Assembly (NCBI GenBank): GCA_963810965.1
Contig: CAWEPT010000016.1
Location: forward strand, 5,051-69,050
Direction of reading: 5' to 3'
Origin: an uncultured delta proteobacterium
GTDB lineage: Bacteria > Desulfobacterota > Syntrophia > Syntrophales > UBA2192
DNA: 64,000 nucleotides
Shown: positions 9,489 through 55,449 of the stretch, in pieces
How the letters are laid out: each line of letters opens with the position of its first letter
Numbering within the stretch: the stretch's first letter is position 1
Position numbers and translations under genes: made by a program
The notes under the pieces: model-generated
What the model was told of the DNA's origin: nothing
Database searches by the model: none
The model's input: only the letters and a program-made list of their open reading frames with translations

Positions 9489-9531
9489 GAAAGAAGAGAA
9501 GTTGAGAAGTGTAAGAAGGTGAGAAGTTGGG
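9489..9531 (+). repeat. degenerate GAGAAGT-type tandem array in the 3' spacer
   Basis: GAAAGAAGAGAAGTTGAGAAGTGTAAGAAGGTGAGAAGTTGGG starts 7 nt after the VWA stop. Confidence 0.8.
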
Positions 9532-9628
9532 ATTGCATCGTTTTCCAACGTCTTGCCCCGAATCCCTGTCCTGATCATGACCAGTTGTGGTAAAATAGCA
9601 AATCAAAAGGCCCATTACAGTATCGTCT

Positions 9629-10457
9629 ATGAGCGTGAGACAGGAATACCGGCATGCGCAGGAGATTGCCCGGCGGATCACCGGGGAAGTGGGCGAGCCC
9701 TCCTTTTACGGCGAGCAGAAAAAAGCGGTAGAAACATCCGGCCGTCTCTTCAGGGAACACCCTCTCGTGACGCAGGCCATCGCTGTCCTCGGAGCCGACC
9801 CGGACAGGCTCGGTCACGGGCTCAGCCATGTCACGAAGGTGGCCGTCGATGCGGGTGCGATCATTCTCGTCGAGCGTGAAAAAAAGAGAACCCGCCGATC
9901 GGGTCCTCAGGCTCGTCGCCCTGGCCCATGTGGCCGGTGTCCTGCACGACATCAAACGGGAGGAGAAGGATCACGCCAGGAAGGGGGCCGAGGAGGCCGA
10001 GCGGATTCTCCGTGATTTCGATCTCAGCGAGGCCGAGCGCTTCGCGATAGCCAGCGCCATCGAGAACCACGAGGCCTTCCGGCCGGTGCCGCCCCTGGAT
10101 GACCCGGCCTGGCAGCTGCTTTCCGATGCGCTCTACGACGCCGACAAATTCCGCTGGGGGCCCGACAACTTCTCTGAAATGCTCTGGGACATGGTGTCGA
10201 GGCGAGATGTGCCCCTCTCGAAGGTGCTCGGCCGGTTTCTCAAGGGGATGGAGGGGGTCGAGAGGATCCGGGAAACCTTCCGCAGCGAAACGGGACGGCA
10301 TTATGGACCCGATTTCATCGACCGCGGGATGGAGATCGGCAGAAGGCTCTATGCGGAGCTGACTGCGGTGAAGGCTGACAGGCTACAGCCAACAGCCGCA
10401 CAGCCAAAAGCGAAAGTAAAGTCAATTAATCCTGTGGCTGAGACCTGTCAGCTGTAG
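9629..10457 (+). CDS. HD domain protein (metal-dependent phosphohydrolase), one frame change near 9885
   Basis: HGLSHVTKVAVDAG ... VAGVLHDIKREE (H...HD motif). The shift is at the A-run GAAAAAAAG. The last ~25 codons run through a hairpin repeat element, so the true stop is uncertain. Confidence 0.65.
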
Positions 10458-10460
10458 GCT
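10373..10460. repeat. ~90-bp imperfect hairpin element built from CAGCCNA / CTGTRGG heptamers (copy 1)
   Basis: Left arm GGCTGACAGGCTACAGCCAACAGCCGCACAGCC, A-rich loop, right arm CCTGTGGCTGAGACCTGTCAGCTGTAGGCT. A second copy is at 13742..13824. Confidence 0.8.
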
Positions 10461-10487
10461 ATCGAATGAAGACTGAAATCTCTGATC

Positions 10488-10522
10488 AAACCCTGAACTC
10501 GATACCCTGAACCCTGAATACG
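10488..10522. repeat. ACCCTGA-type heptamer array
   Basis: AAACCCTGAACTCGATACCCTGAACCCTGAATACG, immediately before the USP RBS. Confidence 0.8.
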
Positions 10523-10534
10523 AAAGGAGAAGGT

Positions 10535-10981
10535 ATGATCAAAAGGATTCTCATGGCGACGGACGGCTCAAAAACGTCCGATCGGGCGCTCAAGGTTGCC
10601 ATCGAAATGGCAAAGAAGATGGGGGCGAAGCTCGCCCTCGTCGGGGTGATCGACAACCGCCTCTATGTGGGCCGAACGATGCGTGCCTCAGACTCGCCGA
10701 CGCGGATTGCCGAGTCCGTCGAGGACTACCTGATGCAGGTTGCAGGGGCATACCTTGCCGACGCGTCCAGACAGTGCGAGCAGAGCGGGATCGAGCCCGA
10801 GATCGTCATTCGGACGGGGCATCCGGCCGAGGAGATCCTGAAGGAAGCCCGCCGGTCGAAGGCCGACCTGCTGGTCATGGGATCCCACGGAAAGAGCGGG
10901 ATCGGCTCGGTGATGGGCAGCGTCACCTTCGCGGTGCTCCACGGGGAGTCACGGGTTCCGATCCTCGTCGTCAAAAAGTGA
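10535..10981 (+). CDS. universal stress protein (UspA family)
   Basis: AAAGGAGAAGG RBS. ILMATDGS...ADLLVMGSHGKSGIGSVMGSVTFAVL...PILVV. Confidence 0.85.
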   Translation: MIKRILMATDGSKTSDRALKVAIEMAKKMGAKLALVGVIDNRLYVGRTMRASDSPTRIAESVEDYLMQVAGAYLADASRQCEQSGIEPEIVIRTGHPAEEILKEARRSKADLLVMGSHGKSGIGSVMGSVTFAVLHGESRVPILVVKK

Positions 10982-11882: not shown

Positions 11883-11944
11883 GACGATTGAAAAACAGCC
11901 TGAATGCCCATCGGAAATCAAACAAAACCACCACGGAGGACTGC

Positions 11945-12664
11945 GTGGACACCTATAAGATCCAAAGAGGAGACACGATTGATCGGGTCACGAAGCAGCT
12001 GGGAATGACATGGGACGAATTCCGGCAAGTCAACCCCGATGCCGTCGGGCGTTCTGCCAGGACGGGAAAATGGATCATCAAGGCAGGAAGCGAGGTCAAG
12101 GGGCCGGGTTCCTTCCAGTCGGTGCTCCAGGAACAGCGAACAGCTGCCAGAGAGCTCGCAAAGGATGCAGAAGCGCCGAAATCGAAAGGTCAATGGACGG
12201 AATACACCGTGAAGCAGGGAGACACCCTCTGGGGGCTGGCCCGGGATACCTTCGGGACCACCGTCAAGGAGCTCGCGAAAACGAACAACATCACGAACCC
12301 CGACCGCATCCGCCCGGGGCAGAAGATCCGTGCCAGGATACCGGACGCTGCAGAGAAGGTGACACCCGAAACCGGTGAGCGCTCCGAGGTGGTCGCCAGC
12401 TGGTACGGGAAAGAGTATCACGGCAGGCCCATGGCAAACGGCAAGATTTATAACATGTATGCCAGCACAATTGCCCACCGGACGCTTCCCCTCGGGACAA
12501 AGGTGGAATTGACGAACCCCGATACGAGCCAGATCGTCCGGGCCGTCGTGACGGACCGTGGGCCCTTCATCGACGGGCGCGACGTGGACCTCTCCTATGG
12601 CATTGCCAAGAAGCTCAACCTGGTTGAGAAAGGCGTGGGCAAGGTGATCATGGAAATTCTGTGA
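11945..12664 (+). CDS. rlpA: LysM-LysM-RlpA (double-psi beta-barrel) family lytic transglycosylase-like protein
   Basis: Track ORF starts at TTG 11888. GTG 11945 behind ACGGAGGA is the more likely start. LysM motifs YKIQRGDTIDRVTKQLGMTW and YTVKQGDTLWGLARDTFG. DPBB region ASWYGKEYHGRPMANGKIYNM...VTDRGPF. Confidence 0.75.
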   Translation: MDTYKIQRGDTIDRVTKQLGMTWDEFRQVNPDAVGRSARTGKWIIKAGSEVKGPGSFQSVLQEQRTAARELAKDAEAPKSKGQWTEYTVKQGDTLWGLARDTFGTTVKELAKTNNITNPDRIRPGQKIRARIPDAAEKVTPETGERSEVVASWYGKEYHGRPMANGKIYNMYASTIAHRTLPLGTKVELTNPDTSQIVRAVVTDRGPFIDGRDVDLSYGIAKKLNLVEKGVGKVIMEIL

Positions 12665-12690
12665 GTTGCTGCGAGGCAGCAGCTCACAGG

Positions 12691-12762
12691 CCCGAGGCTC
12701 GAGGAACGAGGACCGAGGAAGATAAAAAGCCTCGAGCCCCGTGCCTCGACCCTCGGGCCTCG
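12691..12762. repeat. inverted pair of CGAGGNN / CCTCGNN heptamer arrays
   Basis: CCCGAGGCTCGAGGAACGAGGACCGAGGAAG, loop ATAAAAAG, CCTCGAGCCCCGTGCCTCGACCCTCGGGCCTCG. Preceded by a separate hairpin at 12661-12687. Confidence 0.85.
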
Positions 12763-12764
12763 AT

Positions 12765-12809
12765 AAAAAAGCCCCCATCCTGTCGCTTATGCAGGATGGG
12801 GGCTTTTTA
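12765..12809. terminator. rho-independent terminator, usable from both strands
   Basis: A-run, stem GCCCCCATCCTG / CAGGATGGGGGC, then TTTTTAT. Confidence 0.75.
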
Positions 12810-12816
12810 TTGGAGG

Positions 12817-12893
12817 ACCTGTCTGGTCTATCTGGTCTGTCTCGTCTATCTGTCAGTCTATTCCGTCTGTTCCGTCGTTTCGTTCCCGGATCC
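12817..12893. repeat. GTCTNNC-type period-7 array (purine-rich on the minus strand)
   Basis: CCTGTCTGGTCTATCTGGTCTGTCTCGTCTATCTGTCAGTCTATTCCGTCTGTTCCGTCGTTTCG. It lies just 3' of the minus-strand gene ending at 12916. Confidence 0.8.
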
Positions 12894-12915
12894 TGTACTC
12901 GGACCCTTTACCCTT

Positions 12916-13161
12916 TCACCTTGGGCCTGCGTTCGGGATCCGGTCCCAGGCGTCCTTGTAGAGCCTGCCGATGCAGAGCGCCAGCCCCAGGAAGAACAGC
13001 CCCAGCATGAAGGTCGGAGGCGTGTGCAGCATCTGGTCGATCAGGTGACCCACGTACAGGAAGAGCATCGAGGCAATCACGATCGCAAACCCCCAGGCGC
13101 CGATCACAAGGATGTGTGAGAAATCGATCTGCCGCGGTCTTGCTTTCACTTGCGCTGCCAT
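12916..13161 (-). CDS. AtpZ/AtpI-like small membrane protein
   Basis: AGGAGGAG RBS. Two TM helices, with GHLIDQMLHTPPTFMLGLFFLG resembling the G..LD..L.T.P.F core of the ATPase_gene1 family. Confidence 0.5.
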   Translation of the reverse strand: MAAQVKARPRQIDFSHILVIGAWGFAIVIASMLFLYVGHLIDQMLHTPPTFMLGLFFLGLALCIGRLYKDAWDRIPNAGPR

Positions 13162-13488: not shown

Positions 13489-13700
13489 TTTGAGGTCCTC
13501 CTCGGTGTTTTTGTTTGTTGCCCGATACTATAGGAAGGACCGTGCCAGGACGGGCACCGGGCAAAAGATAGTTTGCAAGTTGCCGCTGCAAAAGGGAAAT
13601 TGACGATGCGCGGGCTTGCCGGCTTATCCCCCGATGCCCTCGGAAAGGCCCCATTTTGAAAGAAACGTTCAATCCGGGGGTGAACGAAACATGGAAGAAA

Positions 13701-13731
13701 GGGTAGAGGGTAGCGGGTCGAGGGTAGAGGG
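13701..13731 (+). repeat. GGGTAGA heptamer array (five G3 tracts)
   Basis: GGGTAGAGGGTAGCGGGTCGAGGGTAGAGGG, in a divergent spacer. Confidence 0.85.
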
Positions 13732-13741
13732 AAAAACAGAT

Positions 13742-13824
13742 GGCCGACAGTCCGCAGCCGACAGCCAAAGACGAAAAGCCAACAATGAATCTTTACTGTA
13801 GGCTGTAGACTGTCGACTGTAGGC
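13742..13824. repeat. ~85-bp imperfect hairpin element (copy 2 of the 10373..10460 element)
   Basis: GGCCGACAGTCCGCAGCCGACAGCC, A-rich loop AAAGACGAAAAG..., CTGTAGGCTGTAGACTGTCGACTGTAGGC. Same orientation and roughly 80% similar by eye. Confidence 0.8.
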
Positions 13825-13879
13825 TTTAGATGGCATATGTTATAAAGGATTATGACGTTTGGGGAAAGGAGGGTTGAAG

Positions 13880-14177
13880 ATGAAGAGGATTCTAACTGGT
13901 ATTTTATTGTCGTTGATTATGCTGTCCGTCATTCACGGGGTCGTGCAGGCGCAGGAAAGGAAGCTTCCGGAACCGGGCGGGGGAACCGTGGCCGTCCTCG
14001 ACAAAGCGACATTCGTTGAGGTGCGTGACCGCGGGCCCGGCTAACCACAGCGTCATCCTTTACGAGGTCGTGAAGGGGAAAATCCGGATTGTTGATGCGG
14101 TGAGGGTCAACAGCGATTTCACAAAAGATCCCACCATCATCCGGTACACACGGATCAGGGATATCAAGGAACAGTGA
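13880..14177 (+). CDS. hypothetical small secreted protein, one frame change near 14035
   Basis: GGAAAGGAGGG RBS. Signal peptide MKRILTGILLSLIMLSVIHGVVQA. Continues in another frame as ...SVILYEVVKGKIRIVDAVRVNSDFTKDPTIIRYTRIRDIKEQ*. Confidence 0.45.
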
Positions 14178-14276
14178 AGAACAGGTCACGAGGTTCGAGG
14201 AAAAAGGACCAGGGACGAGGTGAGACGATCTCAAATCCGCGTCCGATTCCTAATTACCTAATCACCTGTTACCTTT
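14178..14276. repeat. purine-rich / pyrimidine-rich degenerate arrays between convergent genes
   Basis: GAACAGGTCACGAGGTTCGAGGAAAAAGGACCAGGGACGAGGTGAGACG ... GATTCCTAATTACCTAATCACCTGTTACCTTTC. Confidence 0.7.
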
Positions 14277-15609
14277 CTAGCCACGCGGCCAGATCTTCTT
14301 GAAGGCCGTTTTCGGGAAGAAGCAGTGCGGGCACTCCTCGGGGGGCTCAGGCCCGTAGTGAGTGTGGCCGCAGATCCTGCAGCGCCATGCGATCGTGTCT
14401 TTATCGAGGTGAACGTCCCGCTCCGCCAGCAGCGGGAAATCCTCGATGGGCGGCATCACGGGCTTGTAGCCGTCCAGGACGTACCGCGACACGACGACCC
14501 TCTGGATTTCGCTCGTCCCCTCGTAGATCATCGGGAGCCGCATGTCGCGCAGGAGCTTCTCGATGGGGAAGAGCCGGGTGTATCCGTACCCGCCGAAGAT
14601 CTGGAGGGCCTCACTCGCCACTTCAAAGGCGGCCTCGGTGGCATAGAACTTCGCAATCGATGCCGAGATGGTGGGGTCCATCCCTGAATCGTTTTCCCAT
14701 GCGGCCTTCCAGGTGAGCAGCCTTGCCGTCTCCACCTTCTGGTACATCTCGGCAATCTTGAAATCAATGGCCTGGAAGTCGGCCAGCCGCGCGCCGAAGG
14801 CCCGGCGTTTTTTCGCATAATCCACGGCCAGCTCCATGGCCGAGCGGGCGGCTCCCACACCGAAGGAACCGATAATGGGCCGCGTCCTGGCGAACGTCGT
14901 CATGGCCATCACAAACCCTTCGCCCGGTTGCGCCAGGACGTTCTCCGCCGGCACGCGGGTATTCGTGAAATGGATCCCCGCCGTATTGGAGCCGCGCTGC
15001 CCCAATTTGGGGATCGTCTTGCCGACCCTGACGCCGTCCCAGCCCTTCTCGACCAGGAAGGCCGCGATCCCCTTGTGCCCCAGCGACGGGTCGATGGTGG
15101 CGAAGATGGCAAAGTAGTCGGCCACGCCCGAGTTGGTAATCCAGTATTTGGTCCCGTTCAGGATATAGTCGTCGCCGGACTTTTCGGCCTTGCAGCGCAT
15201 GCCCGCCACGTCCGAGCCGGCCAGCGGCTCCGACGTGGCGAAGCAGATGAGCTTGAAATCTTTTGCCAGGACGGGGAGATATTTTTCTTTCGCCTTCACG
15301 TTTCGCGACAGCAGGATCGGTTCTGCGCCGAGCGAATTGTCGAAGATCGACGTGGCGAGTCCCGCGCAGGCCGCCGAGATCTCCTCGACCACCAGGGCGC
15401 ACTCGAGGAGCCCGCGGCCCTGGCCCCCGTATTTTGCGGGGAGGGTGAGGTTCATGATCCCTTCTTCCCAGGCTCTCTTGAGAATGTAGAGGGGCAGCTC
15501 GTCCTTTTCGTCGTAGTGCCAGGCGATGGGGAGAACCTCGTTCGACGGCAAAACGGCGCGCCTTGTCTCTCAATTCAATCTGTTCGGGGGTGAGAGAGAA
15601 ATTCAGCAT
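14277..15609 (-). CDS. acyl-CoA dehydrogenase with C-terminal rubrerythrin-type rubredoxin-like Cys4 domain, one frame change near 15545
   Basis: N-terminus MLNFSLTPEQIELRDKARRFA (ORF 14764..15609) joins ORF 14277..15551. ACAD motifs FATSEPLAGSDVAGMRCKAEKSGDDYILNGTKYWITNSG and QIFGGYGYT. Tail WRCRICGHTHYGPEPPEECPHCFFPKTAFKKI. Confidence 0.8.
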
Positions 15610-16191: not shown

Positions 16192-17236
16192 ATGAGGAAG
16201 CGAGAGCTTTGCCTGTGGGCGAGCCTGATTTTTTTCTGCCTGCCCCTCCTGTTTGCCTCACCCTCGTCGGCCGCAGAGCGCTACACGGTGAAACCCGGCG
16301 ACAGCCTTCACAAGATCGCAAAGAAGTACCACGTCAGCGTCGATACCCTCAAGGAAGCCAACCGCCTGGAGGGCGACACCCTGAGGCCGAATCAGGTCCT
16401 CGTCATCCCGGGCGGCAAGTCGGCAAAAAAAATCGCAGAGAAGAGCGCTGCAAAAAAGAAGAGCGGCACGGACGCGACGGTCTATGTCGTGAAGACAGGG
16501 CGATACCCTCGCCGGGGTGTCGGAAAAAACGGGTGTGCCCGCATCGGAGATCAGGAAGACAAACGGGCTTCGGTCATCGAAGTTGAAAGCGGGACAGCGG
16601 CTTGCCCTGGCGAAACCTCCCGCAAGAGCGGAAGAGGACGAGGATGATCTCGAAGAGGCCGGGTCCATCGAGGCCGGTGAGCTGGCCGCCCTGGGAGAGG
16701 ACCGGGAGAGAGGGGAGGCGATTGCCCCCATCTCGCTTTCACGATGGAAGGATCCGGGGGAACGGGACCTTTTCGTCAAGGTGGTGAAATCCTACGAGGG
16801 CGTACCCTACAAACTCGGCGGGAACTCGATGCGGGGAATAGACTGCTCGGCCTTCACGAGGAAAGTTTACGGCGTCTTCAGCATCGATCTGCCCCGAACG
16901 GCAAGGGAACAGCTCCAGCAGGGAAAGCGCGTCGGGCGAGATGAGCCTGGACACGGGGGATCTCGTGTTCTTCCAGACGCGGCGAAATCGGATCCACGTG
17001 GGGATCTTCCTGGGCGGGAGCGAATTCTTCCATCTCTCGTCGCGAAACAGGGCAGGGAAGGTCGACAAAATCGACTCGACCTATTTCAGCACCCGCTTCA
17101 TCAGCGGAGTCCGTCTGAAAGAAACGAACCGTCCCGCGAAGCTCCAAAGCCCGACAGGACCGGGTTCTCCCGCCGCAAGCCCCCGTCCCCAGCGGTGTCA
17201 CCCTCGGCCGAGGCGGCTCACTCGCCGGGAAGCTGA
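16192..17236 (+). CDS. LysM-LysM-NlpC/P60 cell-wall endopeptidase, copy A (two +1 frame changes; stop assignment uncertain)
   Basis: AAGGAGGAGAGGG RBS and signal peptide MRKRELCLWASLIFFCLPLLFASPSSA. LysM YTVKPGDSLHKIAKKYHVSVDTLKEANRL. NlpC/P60 motifs GIDCSAFTRKVY and RIHVGIFLG. Shifts near 16500 and 16940, seen as 1-nt insertions relative to copy B. Confidence 0.7.
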
Positions 17237-18433: not shown

Positions 18434-18473
18434 CAGCCTCAAGCCTCTTTCAGGAAAGGGATAAGAGATTATT

Positions 18474-18543
18474 CACCCTCACCCCACCCTCTCCCCTCAA
18501 GGGAGAGGGAGAATCAAGGAATAGGGTTCTTCATAGGGAGAGG
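18474..18543. repeat. C-rich / G-rich inverted low-complexity arms
   Basis: CACCCTCACCCCACCCTCTCCCCTC AA GGGAGAGGGAGAATCAAGGAATAGGGTTCTTCATAGGGAGAGG. Confidence 0.7.
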
Positions 18544-18547
18544 CAGA

Positions 18548-23103: not shown

Positions 23104-23871
23104 ATGAAAATCATCCTTTTGGGCGCGCCCGGCGCGGGCAAGGGCACCGTGGCGAAACTGCTCACCGATTACGACGGATCCGTTCAGATCTCCACCGGGG
23201 ACATCCTGCGGGCCGCCGTCCGCGAAGGGACCGATCTCGGGAAAGAGGCCAAGGCCTACATGGACCGGGGCGACCTCGTGCCCGACGCGCTGATCATGAA
23301 GATCATGGAAGTCAGGCTCCAGGAGCCCGACTGCGCGAAGGGCTTCATCCTCGACGGCTTTCCCAGGACCATCGCCCAGGCCGACGCGTTGAAGGGGATC
23401 CTGAAGAAGCTCAATCTGAAGCTCGACATGGTGGTGAACCTGGAGGTGCCCCGCGAGGTGATCCTGGACCGCCTCACCACGCGCCGGACCTGCTCCAACC
23501 CATCCTGCCAGGAGATCTACAACGTGAAGAGCATGCCTCCGGCAGCCGACGGGACCTGCAAGAAGTGCGGAAGCAAGGTCGTCCAGCGCGACGACGAGAC
23601 GGAAACGGCCATTTTGTTCCGGCTCGAGACCTACAACCAGAAGACGGCCCCCCTCATCGGCTTCTACGAGAAAGAGGGGCTTCTGAAGAACTTCACGTCG
23701 CTCTCGAGCGCCGATACGGTCGAGGCGGTGAAGAAGGCTCTGAAAAAGGGTAGAGGGTCTCGGGTAGAGGGTATAGGGCGAAGAAAAGATCCCCCCGTGT
23801 ATGCCTGTCATCCAGACAGAAGGAGCGGGGGGATTTTTCATGGCGCATCGACCCGGGACGGAATAGAATGA
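23104..23871 (+). CDS. adk: adenylate kinase (real stop probably near 23750; the ORF reads through its own terminator)
   Basis: GAAGGAGGA RBS. MKIILLGAPGAGKGT. Zinc LID CSNPSCQEIY...CKKCGSKVVQRDDD. After ...VKKALKKG the frame crosses a GGGTAGA array and a hairpin. One extra A in the A5 run would give KKG then TAG. Confidence 0.85.
   Translation: MKIILLGAPGAGKGTVAKLLTDYDGSVQISTGDILRAAVREGTDLGKEAKAYMDRGDLVPDALIMKIMEVRLQEPDCAKGFILDGFPRTIAQADALKGILKKLNLKLDMVVNLEVPREVILDRLTTRRTCSNPSCQEIYNVKSMPPAADGTCKKCGSKVVQRDDETETAILFRLETYNQKTAPLIGFYEKEGLLKNFTSLSSADTVEAVKKALKKGRGSRVEGIGRRKDPPVYACHPDRRSGGIFHGASTRDGIE
23748..23783 (+). repeat. GGGTAGA heptamer array (five G3 tracts)
   Basis: GGGTAGAGGGTCTCGGGTAGAGGGTATAGGGCGAAG. 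Confidence 0.85.
23785..23838 (+). terminator. rho-independent terminator
   Basis: Stem GATCCCCCCG ... CGGGGGGATT followed by TTTT. Confidence 0.7.
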
Positions 23872-23893: not shown

Positions 23894-25858
23894 TTGCCGA
23901 TCGATTACGAAAGAGATCTGAACCCGGAGCAGTACCGCGTCGTCACAGCCGAAGGGGGTCCGATGCTCGTCATCGCCGGCGCAGGGAGCGGCAAGACGCG
24001 GACCCTCACCTACCGGGTGGCCCGGTTGATCGACACGGGAACACCGCCGGAGCGGATCCTTCTTGCGACCTTCACGAACAAGGCCGCCCGGGAAATGCTG
24101 GGACGCGTGGAGCTCCTTTCGGGAGTGGATGTGCGGAGGCTATGGGGCGGGACCTTTCACCACATTGCAAACCGGGTGCTGAGGCGACAGGGCTACCGGC
24201 TGGGCTACGGCAGGAACTACTCCATCATGGACACGGACGACACGAAGTCGCTCCTGAACGCCTGCATTGCCGATGCCGGGATCGACACGAAGGCCGGGCG
24301 GTTTCCCAAGGGGAATGTGCTGGGTGAGATCATCGGTTATTCCGTCAACACCGTGACCCCTCTCGAGGATGTCGTCGGGCTGAAATACCCGCATTTCAAT
24401 CATCTCATGGAGGACATCGTCGACATCGCCCGCAGCTATCGCGAGCGGAAGAAATCTCTCAACATGATGGATTTCGACGATATGCTGGCAAACTGGCTCG
24501 AACTTCTGCGAAACGAACCGGAGGCCCTCCGGGAATACGCGGAGCGTTTCCTGCACGTCCTGGTCGACGAGTACCAGGACACCAACAGCCTGCAGGCGGC
24601 GATTCTCGATCTTCTCAGCTCCCGGCACCGCAACCTCATGGTGGTGGGCGACGACCACCAGAGCATCTATTCCTTCCGGGGGGCCAATTTCGAAAACATC
24701 CTGCGATTCCCGGACCGCTACCCCGACGCGAAGGTCTTCAAGCTCGAGACGAACTACCGCAGCACCCCGCAGATCCTGGACCTGGCCAACCGGAGCATCG
24801 TCCGGAACCGCGACCAGTTCCAGAAGGAGTTGCGGGCCGTGCGCAAGGGCGGTTTCAAGCCCGTCTACGTCCCGGTGCGAAACGTCACCCTGCAGGCGGC
24901 CTTCGTTGCACGGCGGATCATGGATCTCATCATGGAGGGGATTCCCATCCGGGAGATCGCCGTTCTGTACCGTGCCCATTATCACTCCATGGAGCTCCAG
25001 ATGGAGCTGACACGGCGAGGCATTCCCTTCGAGATCCGCTCGGGCATCCGCTTCTTCGAGATGGCCCACGTGAAGGACATCACGTCCTACCTGAGGGTGC
25101 TCGTAAACCCCCTGGACGAGGCAGCCTGGAAAAGGGTGCTCGGGCTCTACGAGAAGGTGGGAAGAGTCACGGCGGACCGGGTCTGGAAGGCGCTGGCGGC
25201 CGAGAAAGACCCCCTGGCGGCATTCCGGGACCCCGCCTGGGTGAAGCGCGTCGGGAAGGCGGCGGCTCCCGGGCTTCTGAGGCTCGGCGAGACCCTTGCG
25301 CTTTTGTGCGATAAGATTGCCGAGCAGGCGCCTTCCGATCTCATCCACCTGCTTCTCAACCGCGGGTACCGTGAGGATCTGCAGGAGCGTTACACGGACA
25401 GCTTCTCCCGGGAAGAGGATCTGATCCAATTGGCCAATTTCTCGGGCCGCTTCGCGAGCCTGACGGACTTCCTTGCCGAACTTTCGCTGCTGACGAACAC
25501 GACGGAGAACGAGGATTCCGGCGCTGCCGAGGCGAAGGACCAGGTGATTCTCAGCTCCATCCACCAGGCCAAGGGCCTGGAGTGGACCGTTGTGTTCATC
25601 ATCTGGTGTGCCGAGGGGATGATCCCGCTGGCCCGCGCGCTCAACGAGGCCGGCGGCGAGGAAGAGGAGCGGCGGCTGTTTTACGTGGCCACCACCCGCG
25701 CCAAGGACCAGCTCTACCTCTGCCACCCCCTGATCGACTATTCCCGCGGGATGGGCATGGTGCCCCTGCGGCCTTCGCGGTTCATCGAAGAACTCGAGGA
25801 GGACGCCTTTCACCCGACGGAGCTGCCCTATGAGCAGTGGATCATTGATGAGGACTAG
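23894..25858 (+). CDS. UvrD/PcrA/Rep-family ATP-dependent DNA helicase
   Basis: TTG start in track. AGAGSGKTRTL (motif I), VDEYQDTN (motif II), VVGDDHQSIYSFRGA, LETNYRSTPQIL, VATTRAKDQLYL. Confidence 0.85.
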   Translation: MPIDYERDLNPEQYRVVTAEGGPMLVIAGAGSGKTRTLTYRVARLIDTGTPPERILLATFTNKAAREMLGRVELLSGVDVRRLWGGTFHHIANRVLRRQGYRLGYGRNYSIMDTDDTKSLLNACIADAGIDTKAGRFPKGNVLGEIIGYSVNTVTPLEDVVGLKYPHFNHLMEDIVDIARSYRERKKSLNMMDFDDMLANWLELLRNEPEALREYAERFLHVLVDEYQDTNSLQAAILDLLSSRHRNLMVVGDDHQSIYSFRGANFENILRFPDRYPDAKVFKLETNYRSTPQILDLANRSIVRNRDQFQKELRAVRKGGFKPVYVPVRNVTLQAAFVARRIMDLIMEGIPIREIAVLYRAHYHSMELQMELTRRGIPFEIRSGIRFFEMAHVKDITSYLRVLVNPLDEAAWKRVLGLYEKVGRVTADRVWKALAAEKDPLAAFRDPAWVKRVGKAAAPGLLRLGETLALLCDKIAEQAPSDLIHLLLNRGYREDLQERYTDSFSREEDLIQLANFSGRFASLTDFLAELSLLTNTTENEDSGAAEAKDQVILSSIHQAKGLEWTVVFIIWCAEGMIPLARALNEAGGEEEERRLFYVATTRAKDQLYLCHPLIDYSRGMGMVPLRPSRFIEELEEDAFHPTELPYEQWIIDED

Positions 25859-25912
25859 GGTACAGGGTACAGGGTACGAGGGTACAGGGTACGAGGGTAA
25901 GAGACGAAGAAC
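25858..25912 (+). repeat. GGGTACA heptamer array (six G3 tracts) starting in the helicase stop codon
   Basis: TAGGGTACAGGGTACAGGGTACGAGGGTACAGGGTACGAGGGTAAGAGACGAAG. Confidence 0.9.
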
Positions 25913-25927: not shown

Positions 25928-25968
25928 AAAAAAGGATCGAGGATATGCATATCCCCGATCCTTTTTTT
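25928..25968. terminator. bidirectional rho-independent terminator
   Basis: A-run, stem GGATCGAGGATATGCATATCCCCGATCC, then TTTTTTT. Confidence 0.8.
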
Positions 25969-25970
25969 GT

Positions 25971-26005
25971 CTTGACCTGAACCCTAGACCCTGACCCTGA
26001 GCCCC
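25971..26005. repeat. ACCCTGA heptamer array (G-rich on the minus strand)
   Basis: TTGACCTGAACCCTAGACCCTGACCCTGAGCCCC, directly 3' of the minus-strand OMP gene. Confidence 0.85.
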
Positions 26006-33306: not shown

Positions 33307-33348
33307 CCCTGAAACCCTGTACCCTAGACCCTGGACCCGATACCCTGC
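33307..33348. repeat. ACCCTGN heptamer array (six G3 tracts on the minus strand)
   Basis: CCCTGAAACCCTGTACCCTAGACCCTGGACCCGATACCCTGC, in the divergent comEC/kinase spacer. Confidence 0.85.
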
Positions 33349-44517: not shown

Positions 44518-44627
44518 CGGGACTGAGGCTACGAGGCTCAAGGATCGAGGAAGAAAAGAACAAACTAAGATTCCAGCTCAAAAAGGATTGGAGACCGAGA
44601 ATCGAGGAATACAGGGTAAAGGGTAAA
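44518..44627 (+). repeat. purine-rich degenerate GAGGNT / GGGTAAA arrays in the xerD 3' spacer
   Basis: GGGACTGAGGCTACGAGGCTCAAGGATCGAGGAAG ... GGAGACCGAGAATCGAGGAATACAGGGTAAAGGGTAAAC. Confidence 0.75.
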
Positions 44628-44638
44628 CAAAAAACCAC

Positions 44639-46652: not shown

Positions 46653-46752
46653 AGGTACAGGGTAATGAGGGTAACGAAGGTAAGAAGAATGCAGGACAAA
46701 TCTTCGAATTTCTTTCTCAACCTCTGTAACTTCTCACCTTCTCAACCTCGAA
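46651..46752. repeat. G-rich array then GAGAAGT-complement array
   Basis: TAGAGGTACAGGGTAATGAGGGTAACGAAGGTAAGAAG ... TTCTCAACCTCTGTAACTTCTCACCTTCTCAACCTCG. Confidence 0.75.
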
Positions 46753-51941: not shown

Positions 51942-52481
51942 ATGCAGGTTTCCGTGACCTTTCGGAATACGGGGTCGGAAAGTTGGTTCAAGGATTATGC
52001 GACGGAGCGGCTGAGCAAACTCCAGAAATACATCGACAAGCCCGTGGAAGCCCACGTAGTGCTCTCCGTTGAGAAATTCAGGAATGTGGCCGAGATCAAC
52101 ATCATGGCAAAGGGCATCAACCTGGTCGGCAAGGAAGAGGCCAAGGACATGCAGCTGGCCATCGACAACGTCATCGACAAGATCGAGCGCCAGATCAAGA
52201 AACACAAGGAAAAGAGCCGGGAACACAAGTCCAATACGAACCGGGCCGAGGAGATGGGCGGCCTTCGCGCGGCGCCGGCCGCCTTCGAAGAGGAATCGAA
52301 GCTGAGGGTCGTCGAGACCCGCAGGGTTGTCCTGAAGCCCATGTCCCTGGAGGAGGCCATCCTCGAAATGGAGGCATCCCGGAACCGCTTCGTCATCTAC
52401 CGCGATGCACACTCGGAAAACATCAGCGTCATCTACCGCCGGGATGACGGGAACTTCGCACTGCTAGAGGCCAACAGCTGA
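51942..52481 (+). CDS. hpf: ribosome hibernation promoting factor (long form)
   Basis: GGATGAGGAGG RBS. MQVSVTFRN...IDKPVEAHVVLSVEKFRNVAEINI. The C-terminal dimerisation domain ends ...ISVIYRRDDGNFALLE. Confidence 0.85.
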   Translation: MQVSVTFRNTGSESWFKDYATERLSKLQKYIDKPVEAHVVLSVEKFRNVAEINIMAKGINLVGKEEAKDMQLAIDNVIDKIERQIKKHKEKSREHKSNTNRAEEMGGLRAAPAAFEEESKLRVVETRRVVLKPMSLEEAILEMEASRNRFVIYRDAHSENISVIYRRDDGNFALLEANS

Positions 52482-52496
52482 GCGGAGGGACCCCCC

Positions 52497-52958
52497 ATGC
52501 AGATCACCGACATGTTCAAAAAGGAATACATCATCGAGGCGCTGAAGGCGAAATCCAAGCGTGCCGTTTTGGCGGAATTGTCGGAGATCTTCACCCGTGA
52601 TCACGAGGGCATCCGGAGCGAGGCGATGGTCGATGTCCTGCTGGATCGTGAAAAACTGGGCAGCACGGGAATCGGCGACGGCATCGCCATTCCGCACGGA
52701 AAACTCAAGGGCCTGGAGAGCCTGGTCATTTCCTTCGGGCGCAGCCGGGAGGGGATCGACTTCGAATCCATTGACGGAAAGCCCGTCCACATCTTTTTCC
52801 TGCTGATGGCGCCGGAGAGCTCGACGGGTCAGCACCTCAAGGCTCTGGCAAAGATTTCGCGCATGCTCAAGGACCCGGAATTCCGCAGCGACCTCATGTC
52901 GGCAAAGAACGCAGAGGAGATCTACCGGAAAATCGCCGATAAAGACGACTCCTATTAA
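52497..52958 (+). CDS. ptsN: PTS IIA-like nitrogen regulatory protein PtsN
   Basis: LGSTGIGDGIAIPHGK...VHIFFLLMAP. Confidence 0.85.
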   Translation: MQITDMFKKEYIIEALKAKSKRAVLAELSEIFTRDHEGIRSEAMVDVLLDREKLGSTGIGDGIAIPHGKLKGLESLVISFGRSREGIDFESIDGKPVHIFFLLMAPESSTGQHLKALAKISRMLKDPEFRSDLMSAKNAEEIYRKIADKDDSY

Positions 52959-53054
52959 AACCCGCGCGGCTCGTCGGCACCCATCAAAAGGTGTTGCGGC
53001 CGGCTATTCCAATCTTCCATTCTTCCAGCGCTTGCGCCTGTCCCGGGGTGCTGA

Positions 53055-53921
53055 ATGCAGAACCTGAGAATCATCATCGTCACCGGCATGTCCGGCTCCG
53101 GCAAGAGCACGGCCCTTCGGGCGCTGGAGGACGTGGGGTTTTTCTGCGTCGACAACCTGCCCGTCGTCCTGCTGCCGAAACTTCTCGAGATCCAGACCGA
53201 CGCCGCCAGCGAGATCAGCAAGGTAGCCCTCGTCATGGATTTGCGGGAGCGGTACTTCCTGGAGAAGTATGCGGAGATCTTCGCCAAACTCAAGGAAGAG
53301 GGGCACCGGATCGAGATCCTCTTTCTGGACGCCAGCGACGAGTCGCTGCTGAGGAGGTTCCGCGAGACGAGGCGGGCACACCCGCTCTGCGAGCGGGGGA
53401 CCGTGATGGAGGGGATTGCGCTGGAGCGGGAGAAACTCTCGGCCCTGCGGGCGATGGCGGACAAGATCGTCGACACCTCCTCGTTCAACGTCCACCAGCT
53501 CAAGGAGGTCATCCAGCGCCACTTCATGACGTCGACCACCGAGAAGCGCCTCCTGATCAACCTGATGTCGTTCGGCTTCCGCTACGGGCTTCCTGCCGAG
53601 GCGGACATCGTGCTGGACGTCAGGTTCCTGCCCAACCCCTACTTCATCGAGGAGCTGAAGCACCTCAACGGGGAGAACGAGAAAATTCAGGAGTACGTCA
53701 TGGGGTGGGAGGAGAGTCAGACCTTCCTTCGGAAGATGCTGGACATGATGGAATTCCTGATCCCGCTTTACGAGAAGGAAGGCAAATCAAACCTCAACGT
53801 GGCCCTGGGCTGTACGGGCGGCAAGCACCGCTCCGTCGTCATGGCCACCCGCCTGGCCCGGTACTTTGCCGGTGAGAATTATCTGGTGAACGTGGCGCAT
53901 CGCGATATCCACAGGGCATAG
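53055..53921 (+). CDS. rapZ: RNase adapter protein RapZ
   Basis: [39 protein letters not shown]. Confidence 0.9.
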
Positions 53922-55449
53922 GGACAGGGTCGAGGGTAGAGGGTAAGAGGGATGAATAAGAAAGAAAAAGGATCAGGAAGACTTCCCGATCCTTTCTTTT
54001 TCTTACCTGTCCTTGATCCTGTCCCTGGTCCCTATCACCCTGGACCCTGAACCCTTGACCCTTGACCCTTTTCTTCCCTTCGCCTTGGCCTTCGCCGGTT
54101 GCGCCTTCGGGGTCGCGGGAGGCGGTCTGCGGGGCCGTCTCGGTCAGCTTGCCCGTCACGTTGTCCTGGATCCAGTGGGCGTCCCACCACTCCGTGGGGT
54201 TCACGAACTCCCCGCCGACGAGGATGCTGAAGTGCAGGTGGTCGCCACCGGCAAGCCCCGTGGCGCCGCTCGCGCCCAGGGTCTCTCCCCGAGCCACACT
54301 CTGTCCGACTTTCACGCCGATATCCGACAGGTGTGCGTAAAGGCTGGAGAGCCCCAGGCCATGATCCACAATGACGGTGTTGCCGTAGATCCCCAGGTAT
54401 CCGGTAAAAACCACCACGCCGTTGTTTGCCGATTCGATGGGGGCTCGCTCCGTCGAGGCGAGATCGACACCATAGTGCGTGCTCTTGCTCACGGCCATCC
54501 CCTCGAAGAAATAGGTTCTCGCCTGGGCGAAGCCGGCCATGGGCGCCGCGTTCTTCATGCGCAGGAAGGTTCCCTCCCAGAGCGCCTTGGGCTGGGACTT
54601 GCTGCCGGCTGCCTGGATCGTCTTGGTGTTCTCGCCGCGCAGCGTCTCGTTGACGAACAGGAAGGCTTCCAGAGGCGTGGCCGGGACCCGGGGATCATGC
54701 TGCCTGAACTCCGGCATTTTCTGTTCCAGGAAGGCGCGGCTGAGGGTGATCTTGTCCTCCTTGAATTTCTTTTCTCTCACAAGATGAGGAAGAGCCACGG
54801 ACGATTCGTTTCCGGCCTTGTCCCGCGCGGTAATCAGGATCTTGAGCCCCCCTTGGGACGCCGAGGCCGGGATGGCGAAATAGACAATATGGCAGGGTTT
54901 GCCCTGGATCGCGTAGGGGTAACCGTGGAAAAAGCGATCCCCCACCCGGATGCCGGTACGGGTCACTTCTTCCGAAACCCGGTAAAGGGCAACACCGGTC
55001 CCCCCGGCGTTGACGTTGTGGGCGGAACTGATCATGCCGATCTGCGGCGGCACCGTGTCGATGGACGTCTCCACCGAGAGCGTTGTCCGGTTTTTCAGCC
55101 AGGAATGATCCTCGGCCGTGATGGTGATCGTCGCCGGGCCGTCCTTGAGATTCAGCCCGCGCGGGTTCAATTCGGGACTCAGCGTTTGTTCCTTTGTCCC
55201 CCCGGCGTAGTTTTCGGACAGAACAACCTGATCCCTGCCTTCCTGGCTGATCGTGACGGAGACGTTCCGGATCCCGCTCTTCTGATCGGAGACGGTCAGG
55301 GCGATGGCTTTCCCCGGGCCGATCGTGGAGAGGTCATCCTTCAGGACGATGGCGGGTTTTTCGAACTCCAGGATCGTGTTGAAGGCCCAGAGGGCGGACC
55401 CCGCAAGGGCGATTGCGAGGCCGAAGAGCAGCAGGTACATTCGGTTCAT
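53839..55449 (-). CDS. M23 family metallopeptidase (the 3' ~250 nt of the ORF is probably not coding)
   Basis: [33 protein letters not shown]...[20 protein letters not shown]...[12 protein letters not shown]. The ORF has no in-frame stop until 53839 and crosses the heptamer arrays, the terminator and the rapZ 3' end. Confidence 0.8.
53920..54070. repeat. G-rich heptamer array, central terminator hairpin, C-rich heptamer array between convergent genes
   Basis: TAGGGACAGGGTCGAGGGTAGAGGGTAAGAGGGATG... hairpin AAAGGATCAGGAAGACTTCCCGATCCTTT ...CCTGTCCCTGGTCCCTATCACCCTGGACCCTGAACCCTTGACCCTTGACCC. Confidence 0.9.

Follow-up and report, generated by a model that had tools for sequence, protein, structure and literature searches.

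Heptanucleotide tandem arrays adjoin stop codons in a Syntrophaceae bacterium and its relatives

Results

In a Syntrophaceae bacterium and related genomes, short tandem arrays of a drifting 7-nt unit lie outside called genes, and those near a gene end nearly all adjoin the stop codon, with the G-rich version on the sense strand. The reading we somewhat favor is that they are heptanucleotide long simple-sequence repeats that arise by slippage and are filtered into untranslated 3' DNA. The arrays were analyzed in a 64-kb stretch of DNA (64,000 nt, here the window), for which an earlier note had described them; its observation was confirmed in part, and its interpretation was supported in part.

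Periodicity of the arrays in the window

We scanned the window for periodicity (21 comparisons, of which 15 or more had to match; chance level from block shuffles) and obtained nine strict period-7 arrays against 0.6 expected (maximum 2 in the shuffles). Gene calls are heuristic and the window shows apparent frameshifts; by these calls, 9/9 are outside genes. Periods 4, 5, 8, 10, and 11 stayed at chance level with 0-1 arrays each, and 12 of the 18 hits at periods 6, 9, and 12 fell in called genes, the rest elsewhere. As had been proposed, the arrays are neither random nor coding, and they are specific to period 7. Tandem Repeats Finder reported period 7 at 10385, 10489, 12688, 12728, 13700, 13795, 23747, 25857, 33321, 44613, 53926, and 54011. 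When the best lag of each interval was compared with shuffles (threshold p<=0.0025), lag 7 was best for 10373-10460, 10488-10522, 12691-12762, 13701-13731, 13742-13824, 23748-23783, 25858-25912 (a 7/8 mix), 33307-33348, 53920-53965, and 54002-54070, and for two arrays that the earlier note had missed, 14189-14225 and 55631-55674. Autocorrelation of the 49 nt 3' of stops in 135 genes gave 0.378 at lag 7 and 0.330 at lag 14 over a baseline of ~0.25-0.29; no lag 7/14 peak was found 5' of start codons or within genes of this set.

A 7-nt unit had been ascribed to every listed array. It holds for the ten previously listed intervals above; of the others, two repeat every 8 nt (9489-9531 and 46712-46752) and one every 9 nt (12817-12893), 18474-18543 shows a weak 6-nt period, periods 6 and 7 are mixed at 25971-26005, and the signal at 44518-44556 is weak (p=0.04). 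Nor do arrays fill most intergenic spacers: among the roughly 44 gaps that measure 40 nt or more, about 12 hold a period-7 array, and the number becomes about 15-16 when period-8/9 arrays are included. The features are as follows.

9489..9531, + strand: purine-rich array (GAGAAGTN), period 8, not 7 (lag 8 = 0.63, lag 7 = 0.33); begins 7 nt past the TGA of a VWA/CoxE-like gene (8457-9482)
10373..10460, + strand: inverted pair, (ACAGCCN)n at 10373-10411, A-rich loop, (GGCTGTN)n at 10436-10460, 83% complementary; 3' tail of ORF 9828-10457, whose TAG is within the second arm
10488..10522, + strand: (ACCCTGA)n array, C-rich on the + strand, which is the sense strand of the universal stress protein gene (10535-10981) whose ATG lies 13 nt 3'
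12688..12763, + strand: (CGAGGNN)x4.6 with its complement (NGCCTCG)x5 immediately 3' (lag 7 = 0.72, 0.75); 31-nt arms, 84% complementary, 3' of the stop of a LysM/RlpA-like gene (11888-12664)
12764..12809, unstranded: bidirectional intrinsic-terminator-like hairpin, A-run, GCCCCCATCCTG...CAGGATGGGGGC, T-run, 86% complementary
12817..12931, - strand: GTCT arrays of period 9 (lag 9 best) at 12817-12893; C-rich heptads GGACCCT/TTACCCT/TTCACCT at 12887-12931, overlapping the stop of an ATPase_gene1-like minus-strand gene (12916-13161)
13698..13736, + strand: (GGGTAGA)x5 in a divergent spacer; five G3 runs, lag 7 = 0.83
13742..13830, + strand: second ACAGCCN/loop/GGCTGTN module in the divergent spacer, 85% complementary, ~50 nt 5' of the ATG at 13881; orthologous module at L002 1690-1800
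14189..14276, unstranded: convergent spacer; (CGAGGNN) array 12 nt past the TGA at 14175-14177, 80% to 12693-12722; second array (CCTAATNA), period 7-8, adjoins the stop of a minus-strand acyl-CoA dehydrogenase gene (14277-15551); each array purine-rich on its own gene's sense strand
18473..18543, unstranded: palindromic element CACCCTCACCC..CCCTCTCCCCTCAAGGGAGAGGG, C-rich then G-rich, period ~6, weak
23745..23783, + strand: (GGGTAGA)x5 at the 3' end of the adenylate kinase gene (adk, at 23104)
23789..23839, + strand: terminator-like hairpin ATCCCCCCG...CGGGGGGAT with a T-run, separating the adk array from the start of the helicase gene
25857..25912, + strand: (GGGTACA/GGGTACGA)x6, six G3 runs, Tandem Repeats Finder score 68-79; first unit includes the TAG of a UvrD-type helicase gene (23894-25858)
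25928..25968, unstranded: bidirectional intrinsic terminator A6-GGATCGAGGATAT..ATATCCCCGATCC-T7, 18 pairs
25971..26005, - strand: (CCCTGAN)n, G-rich on the minus strand, 3' of the stop of an outer-membrane-like gene (26013-26849)
33307..33348, - strand: (ACCCTGN)x6 on the + strand, divergent spacer, 35-75 nt 5' of the comEC ATG at 33273
44518..44630, + strand: spacer between XerC/D-type recombinase and TPR genes; CGAGGNN-like array at 44518-44556; (AGGGTAA)x2 at 44607-44630 shortly before the ATG at 44639; 77% alignment to 12686-12728
46653..46752, + strand: inverted pair in a co-directional spacer, 3' of the TPR gene TAG; first arm purine-rich with a 9-nt period (AGGGTAACG), second arm pyrimidine-rich with an 8-nt period (TTCTCAACC..)
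53918..53956, + strand: (GGGACAG/GGGTCGA/GGGTAGA..)x5, containing the TAG and last codons of rapZ (53055-53921)
53965..53995, unstranded: bidirectional terminator A5-GGATCAGGAAG..CTTCCCGATCC-T3CT5, outer stem as in 25928-25968
54002..54079, - strand: (CCCTGNN/CCCTTGA)x8-10, G-rich on the minus strand, Tandem Repeats Finder 8.6 copies; 3' end of an M23 peptidase gene whose ORF as assembled continues through to 53839
55631..55674, + strand: (GGGCAAA-type)x5, divergent spacer 5' of lysE (55717), lag 7 = 0.62

Placement and strand

The window was pooled with 12 related Syntrophaceae/Syntrophales MAG loci (228 kb, 78% coding), and 0/66 arrays were within called genes of this set. The claim that no array lies in confidently coding DNA thus stands for gene bodies; at their margins, three arrays are inside ORF 3' tails as assembled (10373-10460, 23745-23783, and 54002-54079), the rapZ array starts in the last rapZ codons, and the gene at 12916-13161 shares its 3' end and stop with the array at 12901-12931. 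Near gene ends, 43/46 arrays adjoin the stop codon at a median of 7.5 nt, in line with the proposal that they begin at or a few nt past stops, and about 1/4 of the stop-proximal arrays overlap it. Their sense strand is G-rich in 40/43 cases; after collapsing to 10 independent gene ends, G exceeds C in 10/10 (p=0.002), which upholds the view that the G/purine-rich version lies on the sense strand. Short GGGTANA arrays on unrelated metagenome contigs start at the stop of a G-rich-strand ORF (at least 80 codons) in 12/43 cases and at that of a C-rich-strand ORF in 3. Array sites are also found in divergent spacers or shortly 5' of starts (10488, 13698, 33307, 44607, and 55631).

The window and its 12 relatives have 1.4-5.1 arrays per 10 kb, and more distant relatives and outgroups mostly have ~0-0.5 (L019 has 2.07); the array feature is lineage-specific. 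The arrays were present in all independent assemblies, which came from different assemblers.

Unit turnover at orthologous sites

Comparison of orthologous spacers, which the earlier note had called for, showed that the array is retained while its unit changes and its copy number shifts by whole units, so that one site carries differing unit families among MAGs. At the 3' end of adk, the array has about four to ten units of variable sequence across relatives, the stop codon being the TAA/TAG of the first unit, and an equivalent of the hairpin at 23789..23839 follows in the orthologues. At the helicase spacer, orthologues of the 25857..25912 array use different units; the L001 helicase gene is 91% identical to that of the window at fourfold sites, and the array units differ in both arms. 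The terminator between these arms has an invariant outer stem in 11 sequences, with compensatory changes at 3 inner pairs. The C arm in L001, L002, L004, and L006 is a CACTGGT array of 3, 2, 4, and 4 units, respectively. Units inside a single array stay similar despite divergence between arrays, and this within-array similarity is, as judged from the sequences, concerted evolution.

The two arms had been thought able to pair. A long hairpin between them is predicted in both GGGT-type convergent spacers of the window (-72 and -73 kcal/mol; z -7.4 and -5.5), but the CACTGGT arm of the four relatives is non-complementary to the G arm and the terminator hairpin alone folds in their centroid structures. 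The predicted G-arm/C-arm pairing is therefore without conservation. G3 runs number at least four in about 1/3 of arrays, which could form a predicted G-quadruplex in the 3' UTR.

Proposed origin of the arrays

We suggest that short stretches of non-coding DNA undergo repeated duplication and deletion of 7 bp at a time, with replication slippage or unequal exchange as the probable mechanism; the units of one array would thus evolve in concert and drift fast. Purifying selection would purge the arrays that lie within coding sequence and most of those in promoter regions, and arrays would survive chiefly in the 30-70 nt between stop codon and intrinsic-terminator hairpin, often including the stop codon and last codons, and be transcribed as 3' UTR. 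At convergent genes such survival would yield the order G-array, bidirectional terminator, C-array; this order, described previously with hairpin and T-run, is seen at 25857-26005 and 53918-54079.

Points in favor of this reading are the whole-unit copy-number differences among close relatives, the specificity of lag 7 (multiples of three aside, the remaining periods give chance counts), and the likeness of units within an array despite turnover between MAGs. Local slippage alone leaves unexplained the strand bias and the recurrence of a few unit families, and even of module architecture, at non-orthologous sites: the helicase and rapZ spacers are 72% alike over 138 nt with the terminator stem in common, the two ACAGCC modules (10373-10460 and the 13730-13845 region) align at 71%, and the three CGAGG arrays are 77-80% alike. 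Arrays in divergent spacers and shortly 5' of start codons also speak against the reading, as does the stable array at 33311-33345, which is 100% identical in L005. The unit vocabulary is small (GGGTNNN, CGAGGNN, ACAGCCN, GTGACCA, and others); together with the G/purine-rich sense strand, this points to selection at the level of the transcript or non-template strand, or to inter-site copying, in addition to slippage in the reading that we favor.

Relation to known repeats

Cyanobacterial STRR repeats had been named as the closest described analogue. They are of one class with the present arrays, yet they are not the sole nearest description, since related repeats are described by Rehm (2015), Mrázek (2007), and Aklujkar (2009). 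The G-rich heptamers of Rehm (2015) resemble our arrays in their location at stop codons on the coding strand, their inverted pairs, and their length turnover. Heptanucleotides are the commonest long simple-sequence repeat, for which polymerase slippage was proposed (Mrázek, 2007, as summarized in PMC4679880). Paired tandem hepta-/octanucleotide sites occur in the deltaproteobacterium Geobacter metallireducens (Aklujkar, 2009; PMC2700814). The GGGNATC repeats of Xanthomonas/Nostoc and the paired heptanucleotide sites of Geobacter likewise share a class with the arrays here; what is new is the lineage, a Syntrophaceae bacterium and its relatives.

The exceptions at 13701 and 33307 (divergent spacers) and at 18474 (C-rich arm first) are as the earlier note described them. 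The element at 18473..18543 is an exception to the strand rule, and L001, L002, and L004 carry it too, at a non-orthologous site.

Period-7 arrays in the window

Tandem Repeats Finder (TRF) reported period-7 arrays at a dozen of the places listed in the earlier note, with the sequence described there. In a period scan of the window (21 comparisons at lag p with at least 15 matches, removal of shorter-period repeats, and block-shuffle controls), 9 period-7 arrays were found compared to 0.6 in the block shuffles (maximum 2), and all nine lie outside called genes. The period-7 excess that the note had proposed to look for by autocorrelation or TRF is thus present in the window. Periods 4, 5, 8, 10, and 11 gave 0-1 arrays, the level of chance; 12 of the 18 matches at periods 6, 9, and 12 were located within called genes and the rest elsewhere. 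Under a stricter threshold of 17/21 only 4 arrays were left in the window, owing to unit degeneracy and to occasional 8-nt units; thresholds of 15/21 and 14/21, with shuffle controls, were adopted. We concluded that the arrays, in their core, are a real and statistically solid repeat phenomenon.

When the intervals were tested one by one, lag 7 was the best lag for ten listed arrays (shuffle p ≤ 0.0025), and also for two arrays absent from that list (14189-14225 and 55631-55674). The designation of the arrays as heptanucleotide repeats holds for these ten and fails, or is marginal, for six other listed intervals.

Listed arrays without a clear period of 7
9489-9531, period 8
46712-46752, period 8
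12817-12893, period 9
18474-18543, weak period 6
25971-26005, mixture of periods 6 and 7
44518-44556, marginal (p = 0.04)

The statement that arrays fill most intergenic spacers was too strong. A period-7 array is present in ∼12 of the ∼44 gaps of at least 40 nt, or in ∼15-16 if the period-8 and period-9 arrays are included; some of these gaps are probably uncalled genes. Clear arrays were found at four convergent gene junctions (12665-12915, 14178-14276, 25859-26012, and 53922-54079) and a weak one at a fifth (18241-18547).

The window has a G+C content of ∼60%; ARAGORN detected no tRNA genes in it, and no Rfam family matched it at the gathering thresholds. Relatives of the UvrD-type helicase with 87-98% amino-acid identity were found only in MAGs labeled as Syntrophaceae, Syntrophales, or "delta proteobacterium" (loci L001-L013), and by these labels the host of the window is placed in Syntrophaceae. 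More distant relatives are L014 (64%) and L021 (59%), and L015-L020 are outgroups from other phyla. The relatives' loci reach as far as 10 kb to either side of the helicase gene, which provides orthologues for many window spacers between ∼13.9 and ∼35.8 kb.

Gene context and apparent frameshifts

The genes that neighbor the arrays were assigned by Pfam.

Pfam-assigned genes of the window (strand given for minus-strand genes)
8457-9482, VWA/CoxE-like
10535-10981, universal stress protein (Usp)
to 11550, NUDIX
11888-12664, LysM/RlpA-like
12916-13161, minus strand, ATPase_gene1-like
14277-15551, minus strand, acyl-CoA dehydrogenase
23104 onward, adenylate kinase (adk)
23894-25858, helicase (UvrD-type)
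31480-33273, minus strand, ComEC
43589-44515, XerC/D-type recombinase
44639-46652, TPR protein
46800-47621, KdsA-like
53055-53921, RapZ
to 55449, minus strand, M23 peptidase
55717-56349, LysE

The gene bodies are free of arrays, as the earlier note had claimed for confidently coding segments, but several arrays reach into gene ends. The first unit of the array behind the helicase gene includes that gene's TAG, the rapZ array takes in the TAG and last codons of rapZ, and the array at 12901-12931 overlaps the 3′ end and stop codon of the 12916-13161 gene. The adk orthologues terminate at the TAA or TAG within the first GGGTAAA or GGGTAGA unit. In the window (23735-23871) the A-run before the stop is one base shorter than in the relatives, the stop of the orthologues is missing, and the adk ORF extends for 42 codons across the array and the terminator hairpin. 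This loss of the stop is probably a homopolymer error or a recent frameshift. The M23 peptidase ORF (53839-54200, minus strand) likewise has no stop before the heptad array and bidirectional terminator and ends only at 53839, inside rapZ antisense; since both other frames have stops within the array, a 1-nt error is likely here.

Three further irregularities were noted. The gene of unassigned product at 9629-10457 is split at an A-run (9879-9886), the TPR gene shifts to a different frame at about 46176, and the acetyl-CoA hydrolase/transferase gene at 18548-21083 is without the N-terminal part of its first domain. Taken together, the frameshifts and truncations suggest either a long-read assembly with indel errors or many pseudogenes. 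We provisionally read the ORFs running through arrays as base-level assembly errors or pseudogenes rather than as translated arrays. The arrays are a trap for gene callers: they abut stop codons and some of their frames are stop-free, and single-base assembly errors then let ORFs run through them.

Putative terminators between the arrays

The core hairpins between the arrays have the sequence features of intrinsic terminators, i.e., a G+C-rich stem-loop followed by a T-run and, in the bidirectional ones, preceded by an A-run.

Predicted terminators
25928-25967, 18 pairs, terminator scan
12764-12809, direct sequence reading
23789-23839, direct sequence reading
53965-53995, direct sequence reading

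Two of them (25928-25968 and 53965-53995), in unrelated convergent spacers, have the same outer stem, AAAGGATC(G/A)GG...CC(C/T)GATCCTTT. Across orthologues the outer GGATCG/CGATCC stem never varies, and in 11 sequences compensatory changes occur at three inner pairs; by this comparison the predicted hairpin is evolving like a functional stem.

Position and strand relative to stop codons

The tabulation of array position and strand proposed in the earlier note was carried out on a pooled set consisting of the window and 12 array-rich loci of relatives (228 kb). Gene calls, which were heuristic (self-trained codon model with Pfam checks), cover 78% of it, and none of its 66 arrays lies inside a called gene. 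Forty-six arrays are within 60 nt of a called gene end, and 43 of these adjoin a stop rather than a start codon, at a median distance of 7.5 nt and with a quarter overlapping the stop. The array is G-rich on the sense strand of its own gene in 40 of the 43. Because orthologous sites are not independent, we clustered the neighboring proteins; the 43 arrays then represent 10 separate gene 3′ ends, at every one of which the sense strand has G>C (binomial p = 0.002). Averaged over all genes, the post-stop excess of G over C is modest (skew +0.15) and is not decisive. The arrays at these gene ends have the Rehm-type placement, within ∼50 bp after the stop codon or overlapping it and G-rich on the coding strand (Rehm 2015, PMC4692102).

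The register is also visible without any array threshold. In the 49 nt after the stops of 135 genes, autocorrelation reached 0.378 at lag 7 and 0.330 at lag 14, both peaks above a baseline of ∼0.25-0.29; there was no lag-7 peak in the 49 nt before start codons or in gene interiors. The post-stop signal is weaker in the relatives L009 and L012 and absent in L014, L021, and the outgroups. The window and its 12 array-rich relatives have densities of 1.4-5.1 arrays per 10 kb, and most other loci ∼0-0.5, with the exception of the outgroup L019 (2.07). In the window alone, the post-stop lag-7 excess is borderline (bootstrap 95% interval −0.005 to +0.070), so the window's own evidence rests on its array counts and the strong signal comes from the counts together with the relatives.

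Three simple explanations were considered and rejected. Replication strand does not account for the G-richness: the plus strand of the window is G-skewed throughout, yet the arrays follow gene orientation on both strands. Nor does every unit supply stops in all three frames, since GGGTACA, CGAGGAA, and GGGTCAA contain no stop codon. As for a Shine-Dalgarno-like function, GAGG or AGGA occur in some families only.

The motif (GGGTANA)3GGG was scanned for in metagenome contigs and matched at least 120 of them with G+C contents of 0.28-0.69. These matches (L023-L142) are heterogeneous, and some lake metagenomes (Ga0075108/Ga0075109) contain long, satellite-like tracts of multiple GGGTANA arrays at contig ends; only 43 short internal arrays were used. 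Twelve of the 43 begin at the stop of a G-rich-strand ORF with 80 codons or more, compared to 3 for the C-rich strand. The orientation tendency is thus general and extends beyond the Syntrophaceae lineage.

Turnover at orthologous sites

Every array-rich relative has, in order after the helicase stop, a first array, the conserved hairpin of the predicted terminator, and a second array that precedes the stop of the convergent gene. Depending on the relative, the upstream arm consists of GGGTACA, GGGTGTA, GGGTATA, GGGGACA, or GGGTAAA units; the downstream arm is of ACCCTGA type in some relatives and of CACTGGT type in L001, L002, L004, and L006. The CACTGGT units number 2, 3, 4, and 4 in L002, L001, L004, and L006, respectively, and the differences are exact multiples of 7 nt. 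The 3′ end of adk in the relatives carries about four to ten units of GGGTAAA, GGGTAGA, GGGCTAA, or GGACAAA, and another orthologous site has GTGACCA, GGGTGTA, GGGCAYA, or AGCCGAC depending on the genome. Comparison of orthologous spacers, as the earlier note had advised, thus showed at the helicase and adk sites that the array is kept while its units and copy number turn over.

L001 and the window agree at 91% of the fourfold sites in the helicase gene, and both arms are nonetheless different, which indicates that the arrays change much faster than silent sites. L006 is 73% identical, and the GGGTACA unit is nonetheless common to both. The spacer content does not follow the gene tree, a pattern suggestive of either very rapid turnover or recombination limited to the spacer. 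The units of a given array change in step, and such fast and concerted change is a signature of repeated unit gain and loss by slippage or unequal exchange, to which recombination between alleles possibly adds. The array upstream of comEC (33311-33345) differs from the fast-changing 3′-end arrays and is 100% identical in L005 (11623-11657).

Most likely, the arrays would undergo concerted evolution driven by slippage, with selection restricting them to the stretch from stop codon to terminator. The constraint on strand and unit vocabulary leaves room for a function at the transcript level.

Possible selection at the transcript 3′ end

Among the alternatives, it is possible, although on balance doubtful, that the arrays are selected 3′-end elements in their own right, which is compatible with slippage as the generator of the repeats. 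G-rich heptads, in the 3′ UTR or else on the non-template strand of the DNA, would form a G-quadruplex or a purine-rich segment without self-pairing beside the terminator, protecting the 3′ end or insulating the terminator hairpin, and the C-rich complement would serve as a Rho entry site in antisense or read-through RNA. The strand rule at all ten independent gene ends is consistent with this, as are the similar orientation trend in unrelated metagenome contigs and the retention of arrays with changing units across relatives that are only 50-60% identical at fourfold sites. GGGT-type units are dominant; 7 of the 10 GGGT-type arrays in the window have at least four G3/C3 runs, and 23 of the 66 arrays overall fit the canonical motif of four G3 runs (G3N1-7 x4). 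G-quadruplexes were demonstrated by circular dichroism for comparable units, with a preference for four units (Rehm 2015, PMC4692102). Against such selection, a canonical G-quadruplex is impossible for two thirds of the arrays: the CGAGGNN, ACAGCCN, and GTGACCA families, which have no G3-run-per-unit motif, and the period-8/9 arrays. The modest all-gene post-stop skew also argues against it, and in the same study both strands were transcribed and no regulatory role was identified.

A broader form of selection, which seems improbable to us, would make the period-7 arrays a selected part of gene 3′ ends with a freely changing sequence. What is conserved would be the position between stop and terminator, the 7-nt register, and the strand, which would be G/purine-rich in the mRNA and C-rich in antisense or read-through RNA. 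Together with the bidirectional terminator, the arrays might then act as a composite insulator, in which the G-side protects or structures the 3′ UTR and the C-side loads Rho on transcripts that escape the terminator of the convergent gene.

Recurrent units and the question of dispersal

The same few unit families recur at non-orthologous sites: GGGTNNN-type arrays are present in 8 spacers of the window, CGAGGNN arrays in 3, and ACAGCCN arrays in 2. The helicase and rapZ spacers (25862-25999 and 53911-54027) are 72% identical over 138 nt and both contain the GGATCG..CGATCC terminator stem; the ACAGCC/loop/GGCTGT modules at 10355-10475 and 13730-13845 are 71% identical; and the CGAGG arrays have a common order of unit variants. 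Such recurrence points to selection for particular units or to copying between sites; slippage alone does not explain it. A palindromic element CACCC..GGGAGAGGG (CACCCTCACCC..CCCTCTCCCCTCAAGGGAGAGGG) at 18473-18512 was also found in L001, L002, and L004, where it lies about 80-130 nt upstream of the helicase start, replacing adk as the upstream neighbor.

The arrays could accordingly be the arms of whole palindromic modules dispersed by copying, in the manner of REP/REPIN or MITE elements, with the 7-nt period as an internal feature; we consider this unlikely. The similarity of modules between non-orthologous spacers, the palindrome at a non-orthologous site in three relatives, the departure of spacer content from the gene tree, and the GTAG/GTAC within several units would fit dispersal. 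The similarity is carried mostly by the repeats themselves, however, and the spacer alignments showed no target-site duplications, defined ends, or clean filled/empty site pair, as expected of MITEs; orthologous sites differ by unit turnover rather than by presence or absence of an element. Copy number moves in exact 7-nt steps and units change gradually at one site (CACTGAA to CACTGAT to CACTGGT), both of which fit evolution in place.

REP/BIME and REPIN elements of proteobacteria are extragenic, often in 3′ UTRs or between convergent genes, and form lineage-specific families of inverted pairs that fold into long hairpins. REPs are single imperfect palindromes of 20-40 nt mobilized by RAYT transposases. 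The inverted-pair architecture is present here, but with tandem heptads as arms in place of a REP palindrome, and the absence of any Rfam match in the window also argues against dispersed modules.

Comparison with known heptanucleotide repeats

The closest likeness is to the GGGAATC repeats of Xanthomonas and the GGGGA(C/T)T repeats of Nostoc PCC 7120, with 70-75 convergent inverted pairs per Xanthomonas genome and 83% of sites common to two species with length differences (Rehm 2015, PMC4692102). Common to those repeats and ours are the 7-nt unit with one G3-4 run, intergenic arrays, frequent convergent inverted pairs, sites shared by related species with variable length and sequence, and no tie to particular gene functions. 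That study found no function for the repeats and never mentions terminators (PMC4692102), whereas the arrays described here appear to bracket a recognizable bidirectional intrinsic terminator. They also differ in the coexistence of several unrelated unit families, in the two thirds of arrays that are outside the canonical G-quadruplex motif, in the anaerobic Syntrophaceae host, and in units that are more degenerate and occasionally 8 nt long.

Heptanucleotides were the commonest class of long simple-sequence repeats (LSSRs) in the survey of Mrázek 2007, which, as summarized in PMC4679880 and PMC4692102, proposed polymerase slippage and found LSSRs to be more frequent in larger genomes of high G+C content from non-pathogens, and to lie mostly outside coding sequence except where the unit length is a multiple of 3. 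The arrays here likewise repeat a unit of 5-11 nt in tandem beyond the length or frequency expected by chance, as the array count, TRF rows, and per-interval p values indicate, and their non-multiple-of-3 units are kept out of coding sequence. Stop-codon adjacency, strand bias, and terminator bracketing are not described in those summaries of the survey. Judged by sequence, the arrays belong to the heptanucleotide LSSRs and the GGGT family to the G-quadruplex-competent type of Rehm.

For the cyanobacterial STRR, three heptanucleotides were described in Calothrix PCC 7601 (Mazel 1990, as cited in PMC4692102). The GGGGACA unit in the relative L005 and the Nostoc GGGGACT unit given in PMC4692102 differ by a single base. 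Several tandem heptanucleotide families per genome, many non-coding loci, and lineage specificity are features of both STRR and the present arrays, which belong to another phylum and are short (4-10 units) and degenerate. The units here (GGGTNNN, CGAGGNN, ACAGCCN, and GTGACCA) do not appear to match the STRR consensus units. With a Syntrophaceae host and other units, the arrays are outside the heptamer consensus families of heterocystous cyanobacteria.

The TAACTGA direct repeats of Beggiatoaceae, cyanobacteria, and Bacteroidetes resemble the arrays in being intergenic heptamers at many loci (2-6 copies) with a patchy phylogenetic spread; they are a single exact unit located just upstream of start codons and not after stops, and a role in translational regulation was proposed for them, as was binding by S1, Csp, or CsrA-type proteins (MacGregor 2015, PMC4679880).

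Geobacter metallireducens, a deltaproteobacterium in the old, broad sense like the present host, has 49 elements of four GGACCGG heptanucleotide repeats and opposite-strand paired sites of 3-5 tandem units of 7-9 nt, some inside genes, which were read as sites for a global regulator or IHF/HU (Aklujkar 2009, PMC2700814). One of these units, MTYCTGA, resembles ACCCTGA here. The Geobacter elements are conserved enough for BLAST, and no relation to stop codons or terminators was reported for them (PMC2700814). By analogy, the arrays could be multimeric sites for an abundant DNA- or RNA-binding protein, which we regard as quite improbable. The regular spacing, the few units, the GGA or GAGG cores in several units, and the opposite-strand pairing seen also in the Geobacter class 1-3 sites (PMC2700814) would suit such a protein. 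The replacement of the unit by unrelated families at one orthologous site is hard to square with a sequence-specific protein; units drift inside a single array, and most arrays lie after stop codons rather than at promoters or ribosome-binding sites.

We found nothing in the literature on tandem repeats in Syntrophaceae. What is new here is the lineage, the presence side by side of several unit families that turn over at conserved sites, and the explicit bracketing of putative bidirectional intrinsic terminators. Heptanucleotides are the commonest bacterial LSSRs. The related MAGs offer a natural experiment and a good system for what heptamer repeats do: in many genomes an array persists at a given gene 3′ end despite turnover of its unit and copy number, array-poor sister lineages exist, and the anatomical relation to bidirectional terminators is clear. 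Existing metagenomes and metatranscriptomes could be used to test slippage alone against slippage with selection, and action at the RNA against the DNA level.

Predicted pairing of the two arms

The earlier note had also suggested that paired arrays fold into a hairpin of 100-150 nt. Long imperfect hairpins are predicted for both GGGT-type convergent spacers of the window (−72 and −73 kcal/mol, z −7.4 and −5.5), and the arms at 12688-12718 and 12730-12760 are 84% complementary. The suggestion did not extend to L001, L002, L004, and L006, where the CACTGGT downstream arm is not complementary to GGGTGTA; in L001 the centroid structure retains the terminator hairpin alone. Arm pairing therefore appears to be a side effect of GGGT-type units in both convergent mRNAs. 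That the G- and C-rich arms exist in order to pair, as a hairpin extending or backing up the terminator or as a DNA cruciform, is very improbable in our judgment: the predicted energies and arm complementarity favor it, but complementarity is automatic if both convergent mRNAs use GGGTNNN units, compensatory changes between arms are absent in the four relatives, and transcripts ending at the T-run would hold one arm only.

The probability that the arrays are a chance pattern or an assembly artefact is negligible: the several apparent frameshifts do imply imperfect base-level accuracy in the window, but the number of arrays far exceeds the shuffle expectation, and at least 12 MAG assemblies, made independently by different projects with different assemblers, have arrays at orthologous positions.

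Other repeats in the window

A tandem duplication of ∼1.13 kb at 16500-18430 covers a LysM-NlpC/P60 gene. Identical terminator hairpins (CGCCCCGGTTCTTTCAGAAAGAATCGGGGCG) are present at 17270-17300 and about 18395-18425, and identical small hairpins at 16529-16542 and 17657-17670. At 4121-4195, inside a small ORF, a near-perfect 18-nt repeat (AAGCCCAAGGCAAAGGCG; 4.2 copies, 96% matches) encodes a Lys/Ala/Pro-rich repeat (KPKAKA).
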